Notes under the pieces: model-generated
The model's database searches: none
Told to the model about the DNA's origin: nothing
What the model saw: only the letters and a program-made list of their open reading frames with translations
Part shown: in pieces, positions 3,534 through 61,680 of the stretch
Layout of the letters: each line of letters starts with the position of its first letter
Numbering within the stretch: position 1 is the first letter of the stretch
Position numbers and translations under genes: made by a program
DNA from: Octopus vulgaris
Lineage: Eukaryota
DNA length: 64,000 nucleotides
Direction: 5' to 3'
Assembly (NCBI GenBank): GCA_951406725.2
Contig: OX597821.1
Location: forward strand, 30,938,001 to 31,002,000

Positions 3534-4880
3534 GTCTATATATCCGTGAGATAAGAAATAAAAGATTTCTACGTAAGCTTATGAGGCCATGCATATGCCT
3601 TTTATGCATAATATTCATGCAATGCATATAATTGATATTCAGAGAAAAAAGAAACTCATACGTGTTGAAGTAGTGGGAAAGCAGTGAGTGCGTCATTTTG
3701 GATAACAATGATGTGCGTCTTTTTGTTTTGTTCTGTGAACGAAGCAAACAACTGCCTATATCTTTCTTTGAATGTGTGTCCCCTCCTCCCAATGTCGGTT
3801 GTTTTATTCGATAAAAATCCGTAAGGTTGGCCTTGTACACTCGCCCAATTTCCTGACTTTTTGCTGAGGAGGTGTCCGGCGATATACAGTTAGAGGGTCT
3901 TTGGAAGTTATTCCTTATGTTTTCATTATTAATGTGGTCGAATGTAATTGACGCTGTATTGGATAGGCAACAAGCATTGATCGTATTTCTATTTAACTTC
4001 TGCACTTGTATTCTTGTGAGGAAAGTTGTTATCTATGCATTTTAGGAAAATTCTGGCCATGCAAGTGGTTACATTGAAATTATAGAGAGGATTGTACCAT
4101 AATATTTTCCCCTGTCTGCGTTATCTAGGTTCAATATAATTTATGCTGAATCTTTTGATACGGCGTTGCAGTACAAGACAGCTTTTTGAACCTGAGTTGA
4201 TTAGCGGATATTTTGGAAACACGACTGCTGAAGCTATAAACTGACTGTGTTATGATCGACGATGGTTGGTTAGAGCCTATGTTCATATATGATGCATAAT
4301 CATATAGCTTATTGTAGGTTAGAAATCTGCTTGTAGTACGATTCATGTTGATGTGTAGGGAATAACCTGTTTAAGATTTTGTTGGCTATATATTTTGCAT
4401 CATGTTTTCGTACCGTATCCATAGCATATAAATCTTTGTTCTGTACACTCGAGGCACGTAGTTCTCACATAGCTCTATGCCAGCTTCTTTTATCTGTTTT
4501 ATAATAACATTTATGAGATGAAAACCAATTAAATCAGTTATTCCTGCATTACCATAGCTCTCTTTCACCCATTATGAAACATTATGAAAGAATAATTGCT
4601 TCCTTGCGATCATTATCATATATATGTCACTGCTGGCGATGGTTAGATATGATCTGCTAAACTCAATTACCTTTCGGAGCAGGTGCTTTGTTGATACAGT
4701 TTAAACATCCGTTCTGTCTTTCTCGTAGATTCAAGCAACTTATAATATGGGGTGTGCTTTCGAAGACTTTTGATTAACAGTTTACACTGAAACTTCATTC
4801 TTCTATTAACCCTGAAGTTGCCAATATGCTGAGACCAGATTTTCATTCTGTATATTAGTTTCCATATCAATTCTTAAATT
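3530..4880 (-). mobile_element. Degraded Penelope-like element ORF (RT, thumb, GIY-YIG; Neptune/Nematis-like)
   Basis: Decayed motifs in the expected order: YGNAGITDLIGFHLI (like YDGAEICDLVGLYLL), YMNIGSNQPSSII (like YINxxSNHPPSII), KLNRNTINACCLSN, NCIS...VYKA; many stops and frameshifts. Confidence 0.75.
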
Positions 4881-4929
4881 CAAATTCATGAGTGATGAAT
4901 CATGTTTCCTGTTATTTGTATGTGCTGTA

Positions 4930-5068: not shown

Positions 5069-5492
5069 TTCGGTTCAAATCGCACGTGTCTCGAATGGGC
5101 TGGAGAATTTCTATTTTGGATATATTTGGGGTACTTAATTGTGCTCGTGGCTTAGTGATTGCTTCTTCCATGGGTATGAGTAAGTATTTCATTTATTCCT
5201 TTGCCGCATTTATCACTGACGAAGGGAAGGTTCTTAGGAACTAACTCTGAAATCAGGTCCGATATGGTAATAACGGAATTTTTTTAGAAATTTCCGTCGG
5301 TTTTCTTCGAAATACGTGCTTATAGTGATAAATTACATGGTTTTGACGATTAAGTCAATTTCGGCATATTTGGCATTAGAATTTGTTTCTTTTGCCCTTG
5401 TTTATAAGTTGTATATAAATTTAACCTTTAAATGTATTTTTTAATATGCTGGCCAATGATAAAAATATTTTTCGAAAAAGTTTTATCCTACA

Positions 5493-20911: not shown

Positions 20912-21297
20912 TTCTATTTCTTTACTACCCACAAGGAGTTAAACACAGAGGGGACAAACAAGGACAGACGGACGGATTAAGTCGATTATATCGACCCCAG
21001 TGCGTAACTGGAACTTAATTTATCGACCCCGAAAGGATGAAAGGCAAGTCGACCCTATTTCTTATTTGTTATTTCTTTATTGCCCTCAAGGGGCTAAACA
21101 CAGAGGGGATAAACAAGGATAGACAGACGGATTAAGTCGATTATATCGACTCCAGTGCGTAACTGGTACTTAATTTATCGACCCCGAAAGGATGAAAGGC
21201 AAAGTCGACGTCGGCAGAATTTGAACTCAGAATGTAACGGCAGACGAAATACCGCTTGGCATTTCGCCTGACGTGCTAATATTTCTACCAGCTCGCC
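20912..21297 (-). mobile_element. Two tandem type-B SINEs (one 5'-truncated, one full)
   Basis: Copies at about 20912-21055 and 21070-21297. Confidence 0.9.
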
Positions 21298-49890: not shown

Positions 49891-50379
49891 TGAGTGTGTA
49901 CGTGTTTGTACGTATGTATTTGAGTTTATCCCTGCTATCGTTGTGTAAGTGTTTTGGTATTTGTGTAAAACGTGGTGATACATCTTAATAATGGATTATC
50001 TAATGCTTCGTAGTTTTAGAAGCGCTTTTTTCTTTGTATCATTTCCATATAGCTCTATATTTTGATGATTTTTAAAAATAAAAAAATGCATTGGCATTTT
50101 TGATCGTGTAGAATTAAACTTCAAATGATTAGTATAACAGTAGATAGACCTCGTTTTTACTCGTACCAAGGAAATAGATGATGACGTAAATGAGATGCTA
50201 GATGCGTACTCGTGAAGTCTTTATACCGTCGGTTTTCTCTACTACCTCCAGTTACAGCGAATGGTTCAGTCAAATACAGAATGTTTGTTGCTGTAGCTGC
50301 GGGCAGAATCTCTAAAGGTTAATAGTTTCTACCATTGTTGCAACCCGAAATGCTTCTCAGGTATATGTTTCTTTTTGTC

Positions 50380-50462
<83 letters not shown>

Positions 50463-50684
50463 CCTATCTATCTATCTATCTATTTATCTATATATCTATC
50501 TATTTATCTATCAATATATCCATCCATCTATCTACCTATTTATTTATCCATTATCTATCTATCTATCCATTTATCCAACCATCTGTCTATCCATTTATCT
50601 ATCCAGCCATCTATCTATCCATCTACCTCTCCATCCATTTATCCAACCGTCTGCCTACCCATCGATCCATCGATCAATCCAAAC

Positions 50685-50742
<58 letters not shown>

Positions 50743-50743
50743 A

Positions 50744-50794
<51 letters not shown>

Positions 50795-50925
50795 ATATCT
50801 ATCTACCTATCTACCTATCTATCTATCTATATATCTATCTATCTATATATCTATCTAACTATCTAACTATCTATCAATCCATTTATCCACCCATCTCTCT
50901 ATCCATTTATCCATCCATATATCTC
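50380..50925. repeat. (TATC)n/(TCCA)n tetranucleotide array
   Basis: Direct reading. Confidence 0.95.
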
Positions 50926-50929
50926 TACT

Positions 50930-51910
50930 CGGATAGGCTTGGATGGTCTGCCTCACCAACTTTATTGTCATATGCCAGACTTGTTTGAAGGCGGCTTGGC
51001 AGCTGTCTACTGCAACTGGCAGCAAAACGGGAGTATCATTTCTTTAGCGATGGCACTACTAAAGAAAGAACCAAACAAGGGGTACATAATAGATAACTTC
51101 AGGCCCATCACTCTGGTCAACGCAGATTTGAAAATTTTGACCAAGGTGTTAGCCGAGAGGTTGTGGCTTGTCATCGAGAAACTGGTTCACTAGGCGACAC
51201 CTAAAGAATACGAAGCGATAAGGGCAGGAAAAATTAACCAGGAAAAGTTAGTGGGCTTGCAGCTGGAACCTGGAGTAGCAAGCCCATGCCGTCCAACAGC
51301 GTCTCCATCGAAGGAAGCTGCATCAACTGACCGGTTAACTTACTCGGATTCTGGTTCGGTCCGGACTTCCAAATGGAGAATAACTGGGGCGAAATAACGT
51401 CTAGGGTGGTCACTCTCACCCAGCAATGGGCCGAGAGGAAGCTATCCCTAAAAGGTCAGGCAGAGGTGGTGAAAGCGTACATCCCTCACCGATTACCGTC
51501 TCACCGTCGTACCTTGTCTCAACCCTATCATCACCAAACTGGAACGCATACTCTTCCCTTTCTCGTGGAAGAGAAGTGTTTCGATGGTTAGGCGATCCAT
51601 TTGCCGTCAACACTCGCTAAATGGAAGGCTAGGCATGACGTGGTTGATGATTCGCAGACATGCGCTGAGGCTGTGATATCTTCGGCGTTTCATAGACGAC
51701 GGTTAATAGGTGTGGACACCTTTGTGCGGGGCGCCTTCCTGCAACACGTATCTGTGGCCGAACTGCAGTCGTGGATCAAACGGAAACCGAGGATAGGCGA
51801 ATGGACCACGAGTGTCGCGTTGCCTTCAAGCAACTCTACCGTTCGAGACCCAACTTCTTGTGCGACTTCATTACAACAAAGGCGTTCTATAGAGGATTAG
51901 TGGAGGGCAG
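50930..51910 (+). mobile_element. Tx1/L1-clade LINE ORF2 fragment, internally deleted
   Basis: GLDGLP..NFRPITLVNADLKILTKVLAERL; KINQEK..GLQLEP; NWGEITSRV..WAERKLSLKG; KLERILFPF..MVRRSIC..H.LNGRLGM. Confidence 0.88.
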
Positions 51911-53329
51911 GTAACTTATTAGTGCTGCAATACTTATACATGCATATGAAAGAGTCTGCATGCAGATATTTATCATATGGTTGCAGTTTTTGCTCGAAAA
52001 CACACATACATTTAGACACAGGCGAATGCATGAACACACGCAGAACCGAATGTATATACGCACGTGCGTAAGCAGAAAATAGAATTTTTTCCCCCATAAT
52101 ATATGAGCAGAAGTTCGGTCTAGCTGTCTTACTACCTATTCTTTTATAACAAACCTTCATCCTATCCATTATTTCATTCGCCTTCGTTACTGGAAACTAC
52201 CACAGATTTGTATACTGCGAACATTCTCTCTATTCTTGAAGACTATAAAATTAATATATAGAAACAGAGAATATTACGACGTTGAAGTCGATATCAATAA
52301 ACAAAATATACTATGATTTCCTATTCAATACATAATATATACACACACGCACACGCAGACACAGATACATATATGTATACTTTATATATATATATATACG
52401 TGTATATATATATATATATATATACATATATGTATACCTATATAAATATATATATATATATATGCGCATTATATGTATGTGTATCTCTGCATATGCACAC
52501 TCATATATAGGACTAATAATTACAACTGCGTAAGGACTTAGGATAAGGCTTTGTCATAGACTCTGTGGGGGATTTATTAACGATGTGCTGGCACCTTTTG
52601 TTTGTTTTCAAAGCATTTCAAAAATATCTGCTTCTTTGTTTCCATACTTTCTTCAGGAAAATATTATTCCTAATGTAGATGATATATAGGGCTTCCTTAA
52701 AATGAATTCTTTACCAAATTGTATTAATGGGATATCTGAAATATCTTCCGTCAGAGCCTGGGAATATGTCTTCAACTAAAAAAATTATGGAATCTGTATA
52801 AGTTCGTTTAACTAAGTAGAAATATGTGCAGTCTTTCATCTGAAAAAAAACAAAAAAAAACAATCAGCTGTATATATCAAGAAACGTTTGGAAAATAGGA
52901 AATGGTATGATCTGTGGATATTGTTAAATGAGATGTTTCGGGTATGGAAAATGACTGCGCGTAGACAATCATATACTATAAGTGAGGAGCCGAGCGCCGT
53001 CTGTCTGCCTGTAACAACATCCAGATAGGGAGAGGGAAGATGGGAAGGAATCAATAGGGGAGATGACACCTGCCACAACGAATATTTAGGAGGGAAGAAT
53101 GGGAAATGAAAAGATCTTTTTCACAGAGAAATACAGTGTGACAGAGTGTGTGTGTGTGTGTTTGTGTATGTGTACTTGTGTATATGTGTGTGTTTACGTG
53201 TTAAAGATAATAGATGCATAGATAGATAGTGTTGGCACCCTAGTAACTCACTATTTTTTCTTAAAAACGTGAGAGTTGGCAGTGCAAGCCAATACAACGC
53301 AACACAAACTTGAAGAAATAGCTATATGT

Positions 53330-53662
53330 ACGTACGAGAAAAACGCCCCCCCCCCCCCCCCGTCTAACGGACGGAGCTGAGTTGTCAAACGTTTACACAG
53401 AATTTTCTCAAAACAACTTGTCCGATCGTCCCATACGCCTCCCCTTTGAGAAACACTGATTTAACCTAAATTTGAGACACCAGCAAAAGAAGAAATAAAG
53501 ATAGACTTTTTTTCTATTCCAAAGAAAAAAAGATTTCCCACGGCTTTATCGATCGCATTCTCACCCGTAATCGATTATAAGATTATACACGCCCTGATAC
53601 CGTCAATATCTACATATCAAATTGAGCGCAATCGGATGGAGGGTGCCCGAGATCCTAGAAGC

Positions 53663-53665
<3 letters not shown>
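53330..53665 (+). mobile_element. Possible Helitron/Helentron-associated non-autonomous fragment
   Basis: atatcaaattgagcgcaatcggatggagggtgcccgagatc running into a microsatellite resembles the DINE-1/Lep1-type core motif. Confidence 0.35.
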
Positions 53666-53722
<57 letters not shown>

Positions 53723-53807
53723 TTAGAGACAAAACCACTATTTTGCAAAACAAACAAGGAAAGACTTAATCAATACATAAAATTTTAATAAATAGTCAAA
53801 AAAACCG

Positions 53808-53850
53808 CCACTACAATTGTTTCTTGTCTTGATCGACAATCTTCAGGTGG
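53808..53850 (-). ncRNA. Intact minimal type-I hammerhead ribozyme
   Basis: ccac CTGAAGA ttgtc-gatcaa-gacaa GAAA caatt GTA gtgg: perfect stems I and II, palindromic stem III (ACAATTGT), GUA triplet. Confidence 0.9.
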
Positions 53851-54264
53851 ACTTCCAATCTAAAATATCAATATTTTAAAATATAAAAATAATAATTTTA
53901 AAATAATTAAAGTATTAATGAAAACATATAAATATATAATCTATATATAACCTATATATAATCCATATATAATCAATATATAAACAATATATAAACTAAA
54001 ATAAACCTATCAACAATTAAATATAAAATATAAAATATAAAATATAAAATATAAAACAAAACAAAAAAATAAACTATATATACACCCATACACATATAAC
54101 TAATTATATATAACCATATCTAAATACATACACTAAATCACACACCTATATATATCCCTATACATACACATAAACACGTCTAGGCAACAATAAATAAATA
54201 AAATAGCTAAATACTTCAACACAATACTTATTCATACTCCCGCACACACACATACAACCCACAT

Positions 54265-56440
54265 TCCCGCTCTAGAAACGGACATCACTTAAAATTATGA
54301 ACGGAGAAATGGAATAAATGGAATTAAAAATTATATTCACTTGGTAAAACGAACACTACTTAAAAATTATGAATGAAATAATGCAATAAAACAACAGATA
54401 TCGCAAATAGACACAAATTACTACGAATTCCTTAACAAAACTACCTTGATAAACCCAAACTCATAAAAACATATAATGATAAAATCCCCCTTTACTAAAC
54501 TCTATAACATACCTATATAGCAATCCCCCTAACCTAAACATTCACACACAAATACACACACGTAAACCACACACCCACGACATATACAAATACCCACCCC
54601 ACTTACACATACCTATACATACATATAAACCTCAACATATACTCCAAAAACCCACTCAACCCCACACAGACAAATAAACACATACATCCCCAAACCTAAA
54701 TAGCAAACCCATAAACACATTGACACACAAATATACATACGTAAAACACACACCATATACATATACATACTCACCAAACTCGATATATACAACAATATTA
54801 ACACACCCACATTCATACAGATAAACAAACTACACAACCAAAATACGCACACACACACACAATCCCACATACATAAACACTCCAAAGAAAAACAACATTA
54901 TTACACATAATACGATATATAACATACATCGTAAGTAACCAGAATATCAAAAATAACAATATGACATAAGGAGAAATAATATACATACTTTCAAGTCAGT
55001 TTCAAATTATGAAGTGAAATTAAATTCTAATCCGTTAAAAACATCAAACCAAATTACGTTACCATAGGAACATAACTTATGTATAAAAAGAATACGCGCT
55101 ATGGAAGCAAACCTCACTTAAAATTATGAATGGAGAAATAGAATAAATGGAATTAAAAATTATATACACGCGGTAAACCAACATTATTTAAAAAAATTAT
55201 GAATGGATTCTTTTATAAAACTACCATGATAAACTAAAACTCACAAAAACATAAATGATAAAACCTCCCTTTACTAAACACTATAACATACTTATATAGC
55301 AATCCCTTTAACCTATACATTCACACACAAATACACACACGTAAACCACACACCCATAACAAATACAAACACCCACCTCACTCACACACACCCACAAGTA
55401 CATATAAGCCTCAACATATACACCAAACAAAATTAAGTTACCAAGGAACTTAACATATGTATAAAAAGTATTCCCGCTCTGGAAACGAACATCTTTTAAA
55501 ATTATGAATGGAGAAATGGAATAAATGGAATTAAAAATAATATTCACGTGGCAAAACGAACACCACTCAAAAATTATGAATGAAACAACGTAATAAACCA
55601 ACAAACATTGTAAATAGACAAATTACCACGAATTCCCTAAAAAAACCATGATAAACCAAAACTCATAAAAACATATAACGATAAAATCTCCCTTTGCTAA
55701 ACTCTATAACAAACCTATAGAGCAATCCCCCTAACCTAAACATTCACACACAAATACACACACGTAAACCACAGACCCACGACTTATACAAATACCCACC
55801 TCACTCACACATACCTATACTAACTTATAAACCTCAATATACACCAAAAACCCACTCCCTCCCCACACAGACAAATTAACACATACATCCCCAAACCTAT
55901 ATAACAAACCCATATACACATTCACACAAACACACACACACGCAAAACACACACACACAACAGATACATATACTCCCTCACATATACGCATATACATACT
56001 CACTAAACTCGATATATACAACAATATTTACACACCCACACTCATACAAATAAATAAATTATACAACTAAAAAACGCACACACTCACACACAATCTCACA
56101 TACATAAACACTCCAATGAAAAACAACATTAAATACATCGTAATTAACCAGAATATCAAAAATAACAATATGACATAAGGAGAAATAAAATACATACTTA
56201 CAAGTCAGTTTCAAATTATGAAGTGAAATTAAATTTTAAGCCGTTAAAAAAATCAAACCAAAATTACGTTACCATAGAAACATAACTTATGTATAAAAAG
56301 AATACGCGTCATGGAAAGTAAACGTCATTTAAAATTATGAATGGAGAAATAGAATAAATGGAACTAAAAACTATATCCACGTGGCAAACCAACACTACTT
56401 AAAAAAATTATTATGAATGGATTCTTTAATAAAACTACCA
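54265..56440. repeat. Higher-order tandem repeat (~1.2 kb period with internal sub-duplication), strongly A/C skewed
   Basis: tcccgctct(a/g)gaaacg at about 54265 and 55472; aaaattatgaa(c/t)ggagaaat at about 54291, 55120, 55498 and 56331; ctttactaaac..caatccc-type block at about 54490, 55269 and 55692. Confidence 0.9.
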
Positions 56441-57193
56441 TGAAAATTATTATATACATTTATGAGCTTTAGCTCATCTTGGCAGCTCTAACAAACAATT
56501 TGCAGTAACCCACGTCTATTCTCGATGCCTGCCATTCCACTACACTATTCCATTCCCAAATTCTAAGCAACGCTAGCCCACCACCCGGTTACAATTCCCA
56601 ACCCCACCCATTCATTCACAATTTCAACGACGTTCGCCTCCACAGCGCTACGTATGAGCCTCAATATATACACCGGTGATTCGCTTCCACATCCATGCGG
56701 ATGGGTGAGAGTATGCATTGAGTGTAGTGATGGGGCTCCCTTTGCTATGCACATTTGTACCTGTGTGGTAGTCTCCATGTGTATATTCACGCACGGGTAT
56801 AAATGCGGGGGGTATACGCGCACGGCATGTGCGTGTACCCCCTCACATGTACATGTGTATGCTAGTTGGGCTCGATATGTGCAACGGTGTATTCGCGCCC
56901 GCATACATGCAGATGGGCGAATTACACAATCAAAATACGCACACGTGTGTGTGTGCGTTCTTTGGTTGTGCAGTTCACCCATCTGGGTGTGAGTGGGTGC
57001 GAGCGTATTGCTGTGGATGCCGAGCCTGATACGTATGTATATGAGTGTGTATTGGGGGGTTGTACGTATGTGTTGTGTGCATGTGCTTCGCGCATGTGCG
57101 TCCGTGTATGGATGAATAATATTTTACTATAAAATTGGATTTAATCCTAAATCTGATTTTTTCCCTGTAAATTTGGATTTATTCCCTAATATT

Positions 57194-57269
<76 letters not shown>

Positions 57270-57796
57270 GTATACATATACCACCCATTCCTCACCGACA
57301 CAAAAAAAGAAAAAGAGCAGTCATACACAAAGGGCATTCCCACATTTTATCCTTGAATTTTATTGAAAGGTGTATAAATGGAAGTGATGGATACGTTAGT
57401 GCAATGGAGGGATGTAAAAGTGATAAATATGAAGAGAAGGAGAAAAAGAAAAAATGGTTTTAGGCGCATTGGTGCCGGAATGCAGAATAAGAATAATTAG
57501 AGACTGTAAAGAGAGTGTGTAATACAGTCACATGGTATGCGACATAAGGGACGTTCTAAACAGAATAGAATATGAAAAATTAGTGGGTCAATATTATGGG
57601 ATTAATTTTAATTGGATTACTAAGAACGTAAGTGATGATGCTGAGGTGGAGTAAGTGGCACGTTCATCATATATCATTCGCAGTTATCGTTCATATTTTC
57701 ATAATTTCTATTTTAATTGTTATATGTCCCCACATAACTTGTATTGTCCCCTCGGTGTTTGACCCTTGTGGCTGGAAATAAAATTCAAAATCTCCT

Positions 57797-57835
<39 letters not shown>

Positions 57836-57836
57836 T

Positions 57837-58193
57837 ATTATATCAGTTTTGAAATGTCGAGCAATCTTCAACCACATACAGATTTTTTTAATTAAACGGA
57901 CAAAGCACGTTCTTATACTTATTTCTGAAATAAGTATCAGAATGTACATTGTCCGTTTAATTAAAAACATCTATATGTGGCTGAAGATTGCTCGAAATTT
58001 TAAAACTCATGTAATAATTACAGTATTTAATAAAATGAAGTAGCATGAAACAATTGTACTACACTACCTTGGATATCCTTGTTGTTTATTTTGATTATAA
58101 TCACCCCATTTGATTTATATGGATAATACCATAAAAAAATTCTGGTGCTTTTAATTTAAATACCATATTCATCTGAATCTAAATTTTGCTGAA

Positions 58194-58196
<3 letters not shown>
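57837..58196 (+). mobile_element. (TA)n-embedded PLE-type element with 5' inverted duplication
   Basis: Palindrome 57837-58015 centred at 57926; the right arm continues into an HHR. Confidence 0.75.
57976..58063 (+). ncRNA. Type-I hammerhead ribozyme motif
   Basis: tgtgg CTGAAGA ttgct-(~50 nt)-agcat GAAA caatt GTA ctaca. Confidence 0.78.
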
Positions 58197-58231
<35 letters not shown>

Positions 58232-58744
58232 GAGAGAAAGATATACTGATATATACACTAGCACACGCACGTCTATCGTATATAATATCTATATTTATAT
58301 GTATGTCTCTATATATCTAAGTCTTTATGTATTAGTGTATGGGATATCTCTACAGTTAGGCAACCTCAAAATGGTGACAATTTGAATCCTCAACGTCATA
58401 TGTAACCAATGGAGTATCGCAATCTTTATACGTGTAGATATTATGCTGGACGTTATAGAACACGATAACGTATACGCCAAGTAAGTGATGAGAAATGGTT
58501 ACTAATAATGGCTAATGCGTCTTTATCAAAAATCAGTGACATGATACTAAAACTGCAAGAAAAGGAACTATTACAAGATATTTTATAACATAAAATGCAG
58601 TACATGACAAAATATATACACATATGTAATACGATGCTCCTTCCGCGCAATCTGCAACTCTTACGTTGGATTTGTAAAAACATCCAGGTATGGAAAAAAT
58701 ACAGTTACGGTAACTGATGGTCCAAAATCACAGAAAGGAGATGT

Positions 58745-59051
58745 GGAGGCACATGGCCTAGTCGATAGAGCAGCGGACTCGCGGTCGAGGGATCACGGGT
58801 TCGAATCTCAGACCGGGCGATGTGTCTGTTTATGAGCGAAACACCTAAGCTACCCGGCTCCGACAGAAGGTAATGGCGAATTTCTGCTGACTCTTTCGCC
58901 ACAACTTTCTCTCACTCTTTCGTCCTGCATCTTGCAGCTCACCTGCGACGGACCGTCGTCCGTCCAGGTGGGGAATCTATACGCCAACGAAACCGGGAAA
59001 CCGGCGCTTATGAGCCAGGTATGGCTTGAGAAGGAACAAAGAACAACAACA
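58745..59051 (+). mobile_element. SINE type D (tRNA-Arg-like head, V-domain-like 3' part)
   Basis: ggaggcacatggcctagt..gagcagcggactcgcggtc..gggttcgaatc head; tail shared with 46268-46519; (aac)n end. Confidence 0.85.
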
Positions 59052-60943
59052 GAAAGGAGATACTTCGTAATTCGGATGGAAACGAAATTTCTATCAATAA
59101 CAAGAGGTCGTGTGATTGTGTGAGATGAAGTGATTCACTAGATAAAATCTGTTAAAGTAACATATTGTGAGGGAGGAAATTATATAGGCGAAGAATAAGC
59201 AATCTATAAAGACATTCGAATTTAGTATCATGGCACTTTCATACGCATATGTGAAATCATTTGCATTACATCATTGTGTATTATGATAGGAGTGAATATG
59301 AACGTACAATAGGCTAGATGTTTATGTGAATTATAACATGAGGAAAATAAATAAAAGCAATTACCAGATTTGAATTATACGGGATTATTACAAGAATCTC
59401 ATTATCAGGTTGAATATACTTTGAGAGTGATAGTATCTGAATTTATTTGATGAAAATCCCAGGTATTTTATGTGGTTCCCACCTGGCAGAAGTATCATAA
59501 GAAACCATTATCAGTTAATGAACAACCTGAAACAACATTAGGAAAGCTCTTCTTGTGTAGAAGTAGCTAATGATATTATACTGTAACGCAATCACATCAA
59601 TGGAGCATAGTAGGTTGTCAAAATGTGTTAACCGTATTACATAAAATAGAAAATAATAAAAGCGACACTCAAATGTTGATTATTCTCTCCCTCGGTGATA
59701 CACAGACAATTATCAGAAAATCTGTTCCCGTGTAGCCCTAGGCTTGGTGAGCACATTATTCGCACATATATGACCACAAATCAATCTTTCCCTATATGTT
59801 CACCCAACCCCTACTATTGCAATTTGCATGTCTACAATTATATTATGCTTTGCGTCTATTGGCTGGCAGTTTTCTATAATATGTGGTTGTTAATACTAAA
59901 GCGATCCTATAGAGGTTATATTGTTGAATAATCAGAATAGTAGAGTAAAGAGGTCTCAAAAATTTGGAAATTCTTGCAAAGCCCCCAAAAGTTTCCCTAA
60001 AGTTTTCTATTGGGGTCTAACAACTAAGTCCAGTGTTTACTCGGGGCTATATTCCAATATTTCAACTCATCAAGGCATTCCTCTCCTAATGTCTCAGTTT
60101 GTGTATTACACACACACACACACGCGCACACACGCACACACACAATGGCTTTAATATCTACAAGCACATAGAACCATACCTATCTATCACTGACACCTTG
60201 GGCAAACAGGGTATAAATTTATACATATGTCTGCAGTATTTATACTTCCATCTTCCATTTTCAAACTTTTCATAAACGGTTTTATTTTCCTGTGCATACG
60301 TGTTTGTATATATAAACATTTATATGTAGAATTTGGCTTTGTATCTGACGTTGAGTACTTTTTTGCATAATTTGCGCACATGTACAAAGAATTTGTAGTA
60401 TTAGGACAGTGCATGTAGATATATTACTCCTTTACGGCTATATTATACTTACTTCTCCTTTCACCACATCGTGTCCTAAAACTTCATATATTTCTACCTA
60501 TTCCAGGATATAATTATATTTATATACAAGTTACAATGTAAATCCTTACGTTGGAATTCTCAAATGTTTCAGTATTCTGCCCTCCTACCTTTCCTTTCAG
60601 TTCAGCAAAATCACTACATGTTGCCAATGCCTTTTCTATATTTTTACTTCACTTTTATGTTCTAACTCCATTCATTCGAATCTTGTTACAATAGTAATAA
60701 CGTCTCTACAGCAATAAGCCTATTACCTTCTCTTTCATCTATACATACGTACATACACAGAAACTCACACAAACATACACACACACACACATATGTATAT
60801 ATGTATGTGTGTATATATGTGTGTGTATATATATATACATGTATTTATATATATATATAGATGTACATGTATATATATTTATACAAGTATATATGTGTAT
60901 ATCACTATACATGTATAGACGACATATATATATATATATATAT

Positions 60944-61680
60944 ACAACTTATAAACACGGGCAAAAGAAAATTATTTCTATACCTATATTCTGATAACAG
61001 ACTTTTAAATCGTCAATTTTCACATATTATATACCCACTATAGTACGTTGTGCTGAAATCGAGGAAACCTTGCCAACAGAATTTTTAAAAGGTATTTTAA
61101 TATACCGCCACTTTTTTTATGAAAGTTTTGAAAGGTATTTTAATAGGCTGCCACTTTTTGATGAAATTTTCTTCTGTAAAAACCTTCACACTATATAAGT
61201 AGTAGATTTATAACTATTCGGTATAGGGACTGGTAACCACTATAAGCTGAGGCTAACCAAAGGATTTTATATTTAGATATATCTATGGTACTTATGTGTA
61301 CTAATGATTTTTGCTTCGGCTATTTTTTCCATGAGCTCATGTAAGTATTTCATTTATTTCTATACGTATTTTCTACTGACGAGGAAAAAATCTATTATAA
61401 GATTAATTCCGAAATTGATTCAATATAGAAATAACGAACTCTTGAAAAAGATTCTGCTTGCTAGCTTTCCTTGATTTCAGCAAAACGTACTTCTGTAGTG
61501 GGTGTATAATATCTGGAAATTGACGATTTAAAAGTCTGTTATCAGCATATTGGCATATAAATAATTTTCTTTTGGCCTTGTTTATAAGTTGTTTATAATT
61601 TTTACTTTAAAGTTAATCTAATATGCTGCCACTTTTTTGAATGAAACTTTTTATTTGTAAAAAAACTTCATCCTGTATTA
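60944..61680. mobile_element. (TA)n-embedded PLE-type element with inverted partial terminal repeat
   Basis: 60944-61067 is an inverted copy of 61466-61592; homologous to 5066-5495. Confidence 0.75.
61367..61433 (+). ncRNA. Type-I hammerhead ribozyme motif
   Basis: tttcta CTGACGA ggaa-aa-aatct-attata-agatt-aa-ttcc GAAA ttg-att-ca ATA tagaaa: all three stems pair. Confidence 0.82.

Follow-up and report, generated by a model that had tools for sequence, protein, structure and literature searches.

We find that positions 53721-57118 of a 64,000-nucleotide (nt) window of Octopus vulgaris DNA (contig OX597821.1, positions 30,938,001 to 31,002,000; the window is the whole stretch analysed) are very probably a 5'-truncated copy of the 3' untranslated region (UTR) of a coding Hydra-clade Penelope-like retrotransposon, inserted in a (TA)n microsatellite. 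On the same assessment, the copy holds two hairpins whose one-strand A-to-G changes are likely edits by ADAR, fixed by reverse transcription. The copy aligns directly with coding copies, ends in an inverted tail and contains both hairpins, and genomic copies show in which direction, on which strand and where the changes occurred, and that they came in bursts. It is likely, judging from these comparisons, that ADAR edits were fixed in at least two rounds. Throughout, sense denotes the minus (hammerhead) strand, and L### denotes genomic loci fetched from the source genome as top BLAST matches. The features of the insertion are as follows.

53666..53720, left (TA)n target, a tract seen in the sequence
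53721..57118, minus strand, 3' 3.4 kb of the 3' UTR of the putative Hydra-clade Penelope-like element, 5'-truncated at 57118, with a "short" 3' end that has no tail; recognised by identity to L062-L065, which bear an open reading frame (ORF), and by continuation in other copies
53808..53850, minus strand, minimal type-I hammerhead with palindromic stem III, whose predicted cleavage site follows the A at 53812 and lies some 90 nt in from the short end; found with our own descriptor, and its stems are kept while loop II differs in the older subfamily L088/L089
53881..54260, minus strand, AT-rich UTR segment with 11-mer and 7-mer mini-arrays (53932-54007 and 54019-54056)
54263..56446, minus strand, about 1.8 copies of a 1.2-kb unit, T/G-rich in sense, with nested subunits of about 400 nt; from self-comparison, copy number varying among family members
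56306..56648, minus strand, hairpin 2, in which an inverted repeat-unit copy pairs, in sense, with the direct unit beside it (arms about 56561-56648 and 56306-56404); from folding and arm-versus-arm counts
56780..57118, plus strand, hairpin 1, a 339-nt fold-back of repeat-unit sequence centred at about 56950, a full rod on the antisense strand; from folding and arm-versus-arm counts
57119..57196, plus strand, the element's own 3' tip (the "tail", about 80 nt), inverted, which starts where the left end stops and overlaps the body by 3 nt at 57116-57118; from comparison with other copies
57189..57280, right (TA)n target, a tract seen in the sequence

The window copy is collinear with the UTRs of coding elements. 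It is 97.3-97.8% identical to those of L062-L065 across all 3398 nt. In 18 of 20 10-kb stretches around the top hairpin matches, the hammerhead strand carries a reverse transcriptase (RT)/endonuclease frame, complete or lacking its 5' part, about 750 nt upstream; the other two (L079 and L080) have no such long frame upstream of the hairpin. The right edge at 57118 is not shared: 30 loci were fetched, one being the window's own, and all 29 others extend beyond it, agreeing with one another over 20 nt or more. This identity and the unshared boundary indicate a truncated copy of the coding element's UTR, with no family of its own. As an insertion, it is ordinary. An initial annotation of this DNA had proposed a distinct, large non-autonomous element whose hammerhead end, repeats and hairpin would have common boundaries. 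Collinearity with coding copies contradicts that proposal, and is an outcome the annotation itself had named as decisive against it; the common right boundary is likewise absent. Other parts of the annotation hold: (TA)n lies on both sides, the interior has no credible ORF (the longest stop-to-stop frame spans only 186 amino acids, aa), and the RT/GIY-YIG copies, minus-strand hammerhead and flanks bear out a Penelope-related, hammerhead-bearing, microsatellite-targeting origin. The architecture that it did not recognise is indeed unusual, and would correspond to the exceptionally long 3' UTR carried by an autonomous Hydra-clade element.

Two hairpins with opposite strand preference lie near the right end. 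The fold-back of about 335 nt reported there earlier is present as hairpin 1, which measures 339 nt and stops at 57118, not at 57196; hairpin 2, and the identity of the last 78 nt with the element's 3' tip in reverse, had been overlooked. Hairpin 1 forms a single rod on the plus strand (-190.8 kcal/mol, z -12.3) and a partial fold on the minus strand (-128.2 kcal/mol). For hairpin 2, the minus strand folds well (-134.2, z -7.0) and the plus strand poorly (-61.4, z -1.6). On these same strands, G.U oppositions exceed A.C oppositions, at 44:9 for hairpin 1 (p = 1e-6; 61 versus 2 in the least-edited copy, L087) and, counted in the window copy only, at 29:2 for hairpin 2 (p = 5e-7). Scoring that ignores A/G differences can bias alignments, and the counts relied on use symmetric transition scoring. 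The hairpin cassette is covered by contigs from 4/4 sequencing runs, from four studies, and is therefore no assembly artefact. Assembled contigs (three presumed-RNA sets and one DNA set) gave no usable editing, end or splice signal against L082, and have no bearing on expression.

The changes in the hairpins run from A to G. Both hairpins are made of repeat-unit sequence, and the units therefore polarise the changes. Where both units agree, 43 of 92 A have become G in sense across 56440-56646 (with one T>C, two G>A and four C>T), as have 13 of 63 across 56950-57118 (with five T>C). Across 56770-56950 it is the plus strand that is changed, at 21 of 47 A and with no T>C. From L087 to L082, A>G affects 55/393 A of the cassette versus 1/603 and 0/327 in the ORF and 7/252 in unpaired UTR (3/99 plus 4/153; p = 8e-7); the partner repeats give 8/127 and 6/89. 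Eight early copies together show 100 A/G columns, 31 C/T columns and 29 others. Changed sites follow U or A more often than C or G (57/120 versus 20/75, p = 0.004; 77/237 versus 23/193, p = 3e-7), which is the 5' neighbour rule of ADAR (PMC3113232, section 7). Two hallmarks of ADAR hyper-editing are found here: dense A-to-G change on one strand of double-stranded segments, and 5' U/A over C/G.

The changes are concentrated in bursts. On a tree of 41 copies, built with the A/G columns left out and rooted on L101, the branch to 33 of the 41 copies carries 24 A>G, 0 G>A and 0 T>C, and three other early branches carry 20, 20 and 16 A>G. Repeated origins are seen for 52 of 121 columns. We suggest that, in a first round, fold-back RNA would have been hyper-edited and copied, and would now be present in antisense as hairpin 1. 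In a second round, further editing would have struck hairpin 2 and the 5' arm of hairpin 1 in sense RNA of the present orientation. This second round may have comprised separate bursts on several branches, one of which passed to most of the sampled copies.

Several results weigh against this reading. The loci compared are not a random sample. Pfam finds neither an RT nor a GIY-YIG match in the encoded protein itself, and GIY-YIG is called in 1/16 members. The 3' G preference of ADAR, a weaker rule than that for the 5' neighbour, is not seen at A>G sites (G 9/34, A 37/133, C 31/145, U 23/118), G by itself as 5' neighbour shows no significant depletion (p = 0.32 and 0.16), and A opposite C is changed more often, but not significantly so (23/58 versus 11/49, p = 0.064). 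Parsimony also returns 96 G>A, in part mis-polarised or due to CpG decay. Singletons comprise 22 A>G versus 13 T>C and the window copy has only four private A>G; recent editing is slight. In late copies, the cassette shows sense C>T at 98/259 C columns versus G>A at 11/138, without CpG specificity, and 46 C>T separate L082 from L087; ADAR does not explain this excess. Finally, the two-armed copies L066 and L074 have 2 and 1 private changes shared between arms versus 11 and 7 differences, which gives no clear support for a single-RNA origin of both arms.

Three other explanations were weighed, the first of which accepts the truncated element and disputes its editing. The A-to-G and G.U bias could stem from misincorporation by the RT, or from mutation filtered by selection for RNA pairing, since stems tolerate G.U and the 3' G preference of ADAR was not found. 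The second sense-strand bias in the cassette (C>T, C>A and A>T) also indicates that the RNA/cDNA phase has asymmetric errors of its own. However, up to 47% of A are changed versus a difference of about 1% in the ORF, and pure bursts of 16-24 fall on single branches. The changes are also limited to inverted segments, switch strand between the hairpins and obey the 5' U/A rule, and we consider this origin improbable. The polarity could instead be the reverse, with cytidine deamination (APOBEC-like, or methyl-CpG decay) turning G-C into G.U, a reading that draws on the late-copy C>T excess and on the G>A changes returned by parsimony. It is scarcely credible given that both source repeat units have A at the sites, that 43 A>G stand against 2 G>A and 4 C>T in 56440-56646, and that just 18/100 A/G columns among the early copies are preceded by C. 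The initial annotation's separate giant retrozyme, non-autonomous and mobilised in trans, would account for the absence of an ORF in the window, and for hammerhead ends far outnumbering hairpin-bearing copies (1275 versus 209 genome candidates, with 40/40 scored hammerhead ends 100% identical); truncated copies are, in principle, re-copiable. Nevertheless, the right boundary occurs in the window's own locus alone among 30, the copy is collinear at 97% with coding copies, and it has a single hammerhead, which together make such an element very unlikely.

We therefore favour ADAR editing of a truncated coding element. A further step, which we regard as doubtful, would make this editing a ratchet: the host editor turns A-U into G.U on one strand, insertion inverts the hairpin, and editing of the other strand then gives G-C. 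The edited form might have won because the rebuilt structure helps in evading double-stranded RNA surveillance or in templating. This idea draws on hairpin 1 along the lineage: L101 has 58 G.U pairs, L112 has 40 and L085 has 22, and over the same series the sense strand becomes more stably folded, going from -71 to about -125 kcal/mol. Some of the lost G.U pairs in the latest copies reflect decay, as the antisense fold also weakens there.

The coding element appears to be an oversized Hydra-clade Penelope-like family. The frame in L061, absent from the window copy, encodes 852 residues with DKT, YRDD and CxCX5C motifs, a GIY-YIG-like pair, CxxC and CxH, and no CCHH. Among 7990 scored, 45 homologues of its protein reach E<=0.001, most at 32-39% identity, and these include one short match from Octopus bimaculoides; a PDB search with the protein gave nothing relevant. 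The YRDD and VYK..YIG motifs align across 15 homologues, and the RWK column reads KWK in the protein (P0001) and RWK or RWR in 15/15 homologues. Reference Hydra proteins, from the available supplement of PMC8557442, carry matching blocks when compared by eye. A single ORF with RT and GIY-YIG endonuclease, as in endonuclease-positive (EN+) Penelope-like elements, is found in the L061 frame, and the hammerhead expected in their pseudo-long terminal repeat (pLTR) is present by motif, its cleavage being predicted only. The Hydra clade is defined by DKT, a CxCX5C linker, the absence of CCHH, CxxC and CxH around conserved E and N, and RWK (PMC8557442, section 11). DKT, CxCX5C, lack of CCHH and CxxC/CxH are all found here. 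The shortness described for the clade (<3 kb), a trait and not a diagnostic motif, is not seen in these units of 6.0-8.0 kb. The hammerhead differs from that of Hydra-1_Obim, which points to another family; the clade assignment itself rests on motifs and the by-eye comparison. With 12 genomic rows at no less than 95% identity and open frames of at least 820 aa, the family is young and likely still active. Between RT and endonuclease, an (AAT)n tract in the ORF (L061:4335-4415, plus strand) encodes a poly-Asn run of variable length.

The 3' UTR of this family is long and built from repeats. Higher-order A/C-skewed repeats had been noted in the initial annotation; the 1.2-kb units, nested subunits and strong plus-strand A/C skew stand, although about 1.8 units are present rather than a long array. 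The two copies (54263-55232 and 55470-56446) are 85% identical. Hammerhead-to-hammerhead units measure 5996-8028 nt (eight loci). In 22 young copies, the stop codon lies 2912-5238 nt from the hammerhead, most often at 3.5 or 4.0 kb. Sister families in the source genome show an RT identity of about 55% and a distance of 1.9-2.3 kb to the hammerhead, and L093 and L099 lack such repeats. The older subfamily L088/L089 has the direct repeats and lacks the inverted block. These comparisons indicate that the long UTR is a trait of the lineage and the hairpin cassette a recent gain. The UTR may have grown by tandem duplication and then taken up inverted pieces from the element's own fold-back insertions. 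The C>T bias and A>G changes together may drive its T/G skew.

Further variation was observed in UTRs and cassettes. The late-copy cassette (L087 sense 3780-4900) drifts to T, with 98 C>T, 43 A>T and 13 G>T, and also 31 C>A, versus 11 G>A and 11 T>C. In L083, the hairpin cassette is part of a tandemly duplicated 1.75-kb segment (97.6%), which brings the unit to 8.0 kb. Sister families L092-L099 have frames of up to 962 aa, UTRs of about 2 kb, and an 80-95-nt insert in stem II of the hammerhead (e.g., L093:5734-5837, sense).

The hammerhead is minimal and is predicted to be active only as a dimer. Reading from 53850 to 53808, it comprises a 4-bp stem I, a CUGAAGA core, a 5-bp stem II closed by GAAA, the palindromic stem III and a GUA cleavage triplet. 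Our descriptor found 0/300 matches in dinucleotide shuffles of the 3.5 kb, and the perfect minimal hammerhead reported earlier on the minus strand near the left end is thus upheld. Rfam at E<=1 over 50000-61000 listed no hammerhead, just microsatellite-driven miRNA matches, and the 47-mer segment alone folds no better than shuffles (z -0.5). Both are expected of a minimal dimer-type motif; such hammerheads are weak and dimer-dependent in vitro (PMC4209133). The element has one hammerhead and none per repeat unit, and it appears to have set neither end of the insertion. The hammerheads of L083-L085 carry one A>G in the stem III palindrome, with pairing retained as G.U.

Both ends of the insertion lie downstream of the hammerhead cut, and the template RNA was therefore not cut there. 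In the fetched loci, 13/13 outward-facing end pairs combine one short end with one long or tail-only end, a small set in which one pair involves a tandem pLTR and to which the window's own tail does not belong. Of 26 distinct short ends, 21 reach (TA)5 within 30 nt. A hammerhead end with tail lies about 60 nt ahead of the ORF in L061, L068 and L082-L087, forming a partial tandem pLTR. We suggest that the RT/GIY-YIG protein would cut a (TA)n tract and prime at two sites of one uncut RNA. One end would copy the last ~80 nt, while the other would start just upstream, copy 3.4 kb and stop; a 3-nt overlap would then join the pieces, leaving body and tail oppositely oriented. L1 twin priming is a known analogue of double priming on one RNA. 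Tails at one end only have been described for Penelope-like insertions (PMC8557442), and Poseidon_Ac uses two RT start sites and extends both strands in vitro (Frangieh et al. 2024, PMC11167929).

Other repeats occur in the window. Two further type-I hammerheads, whose stems II and III are long and whose flanks are related (5210-5270 and 61370-61431, both plus strand), are likely the 3' ends of other Penelope-like families; (TA)n lies about 240 nt downstream of the former. An inverted repeat with 74-nt arms (89%) at 57852-58000, beside a TA tract, is probably similar to a miniature inverted-repeat transposable element. At 20915-21209, a 155-nt unit occurs in two tandem copies; we take it to resemble a piece of a short interspersed nuclear element.

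Coleoid cephalopods are known for heavy RNA editing. The element class described here is known, but the element is 2-3x the described size and its UTR is assembled from its own duplications and inversions. Its edits would mean that RNA editing can heritably mutate a retrotransposon that is still amplifying, with strand and structure directing the changes, and imply ADAR-type activity on transposon RNA in the germline or early embryo. Since the edits log each inversion, the copies could be used to test double priming and segment flipping in Penelope-like elements. Among titles and abstract openings, with subscription papers mostly outside the scope, we found no report that describes fixed ADAR edits in Penelope-like elements or in retrotransposons of octopus. 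"Transposon Ecology and the Octopus Genome" (PMC12988792) mentions neither editing, ADAR nor Penelope, and the available part of PMC13282606 lists active Penelope-like families without giving their structure.

The element closely resembles the Hydra clade, including Hydra-1_Obim, as described in the available text of PMC8557442: a single frame with RT and C-terminal GIY-YIG-type endonuclease, and the same DKT, CxCX5C, CxxC/CxH and missing CCHH. The clade and the element also share a hammerhead with canonical core close to the 3' end, insertion into (TA)n, copies that are truncated at the 5' end or form partial tandems, inverted pieces of 5' sequence, and a tail at one end. In contrast, the 27 Hydra families tabulated there (Craig et al. 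2021) measure 1.1-3.0 kb and the 14 complete ones 2.1-2.7 kb, versus a unit of 6-8 kb and a stop-to-hammerhead distance of 2.9-5.2 kb here. The tail is also longer (about 80 versus 30-40 nt), KWK replaces RWK, and a poly-Asn insert is present. That text makes no mention of an edited hairpin cassette for the Hydra clade.

Like animal non-LTR retrozymes (bioRxiv 10.64898/2026.07.22.740005; PMC4209133), the window copy is non-coding and has a type-I hammerhead derived from a Penelope-like element; unlike them, it has no hammerhead per unit and no fixed family boundaries, and is a truncation of a coding element. With one hammerhead in the element and an unshared boundary, membership among them was rejected. 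As for Poseidon_Ac (PMC11167929), our scheme would have two RT starts bounding the tail, nicking and extension of both strands, an AT-rich target and an uncut RNA template. Poseidon_Ac belongs to another clade, however, and its hammerhead overlaps the start codon; here the two are about 275 nt apart, with the hammerhead upstream. Clusters of one mismatch type in genomic copies are also known from APOBEC-edited retrotransposons (PMC2873906), although those arise by G-to-A change in cDNA, in contrast to the hairpin-tied A-to-G seen here. A further parallel is the A-to-G hypermutation attributed to ADAR in the avian retroviruses RAV-1 and ALV (Felder 1994; Hajjar and Linial 1995, as cited in PMC8586724), where hyper-editing is likewise recorded in a reverse-transcribing element. 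Here, by contrast, the element is an animal retrotransposon, and the probable edits, made on opposite strands in two rounds or more, were inherited along a master lineage.
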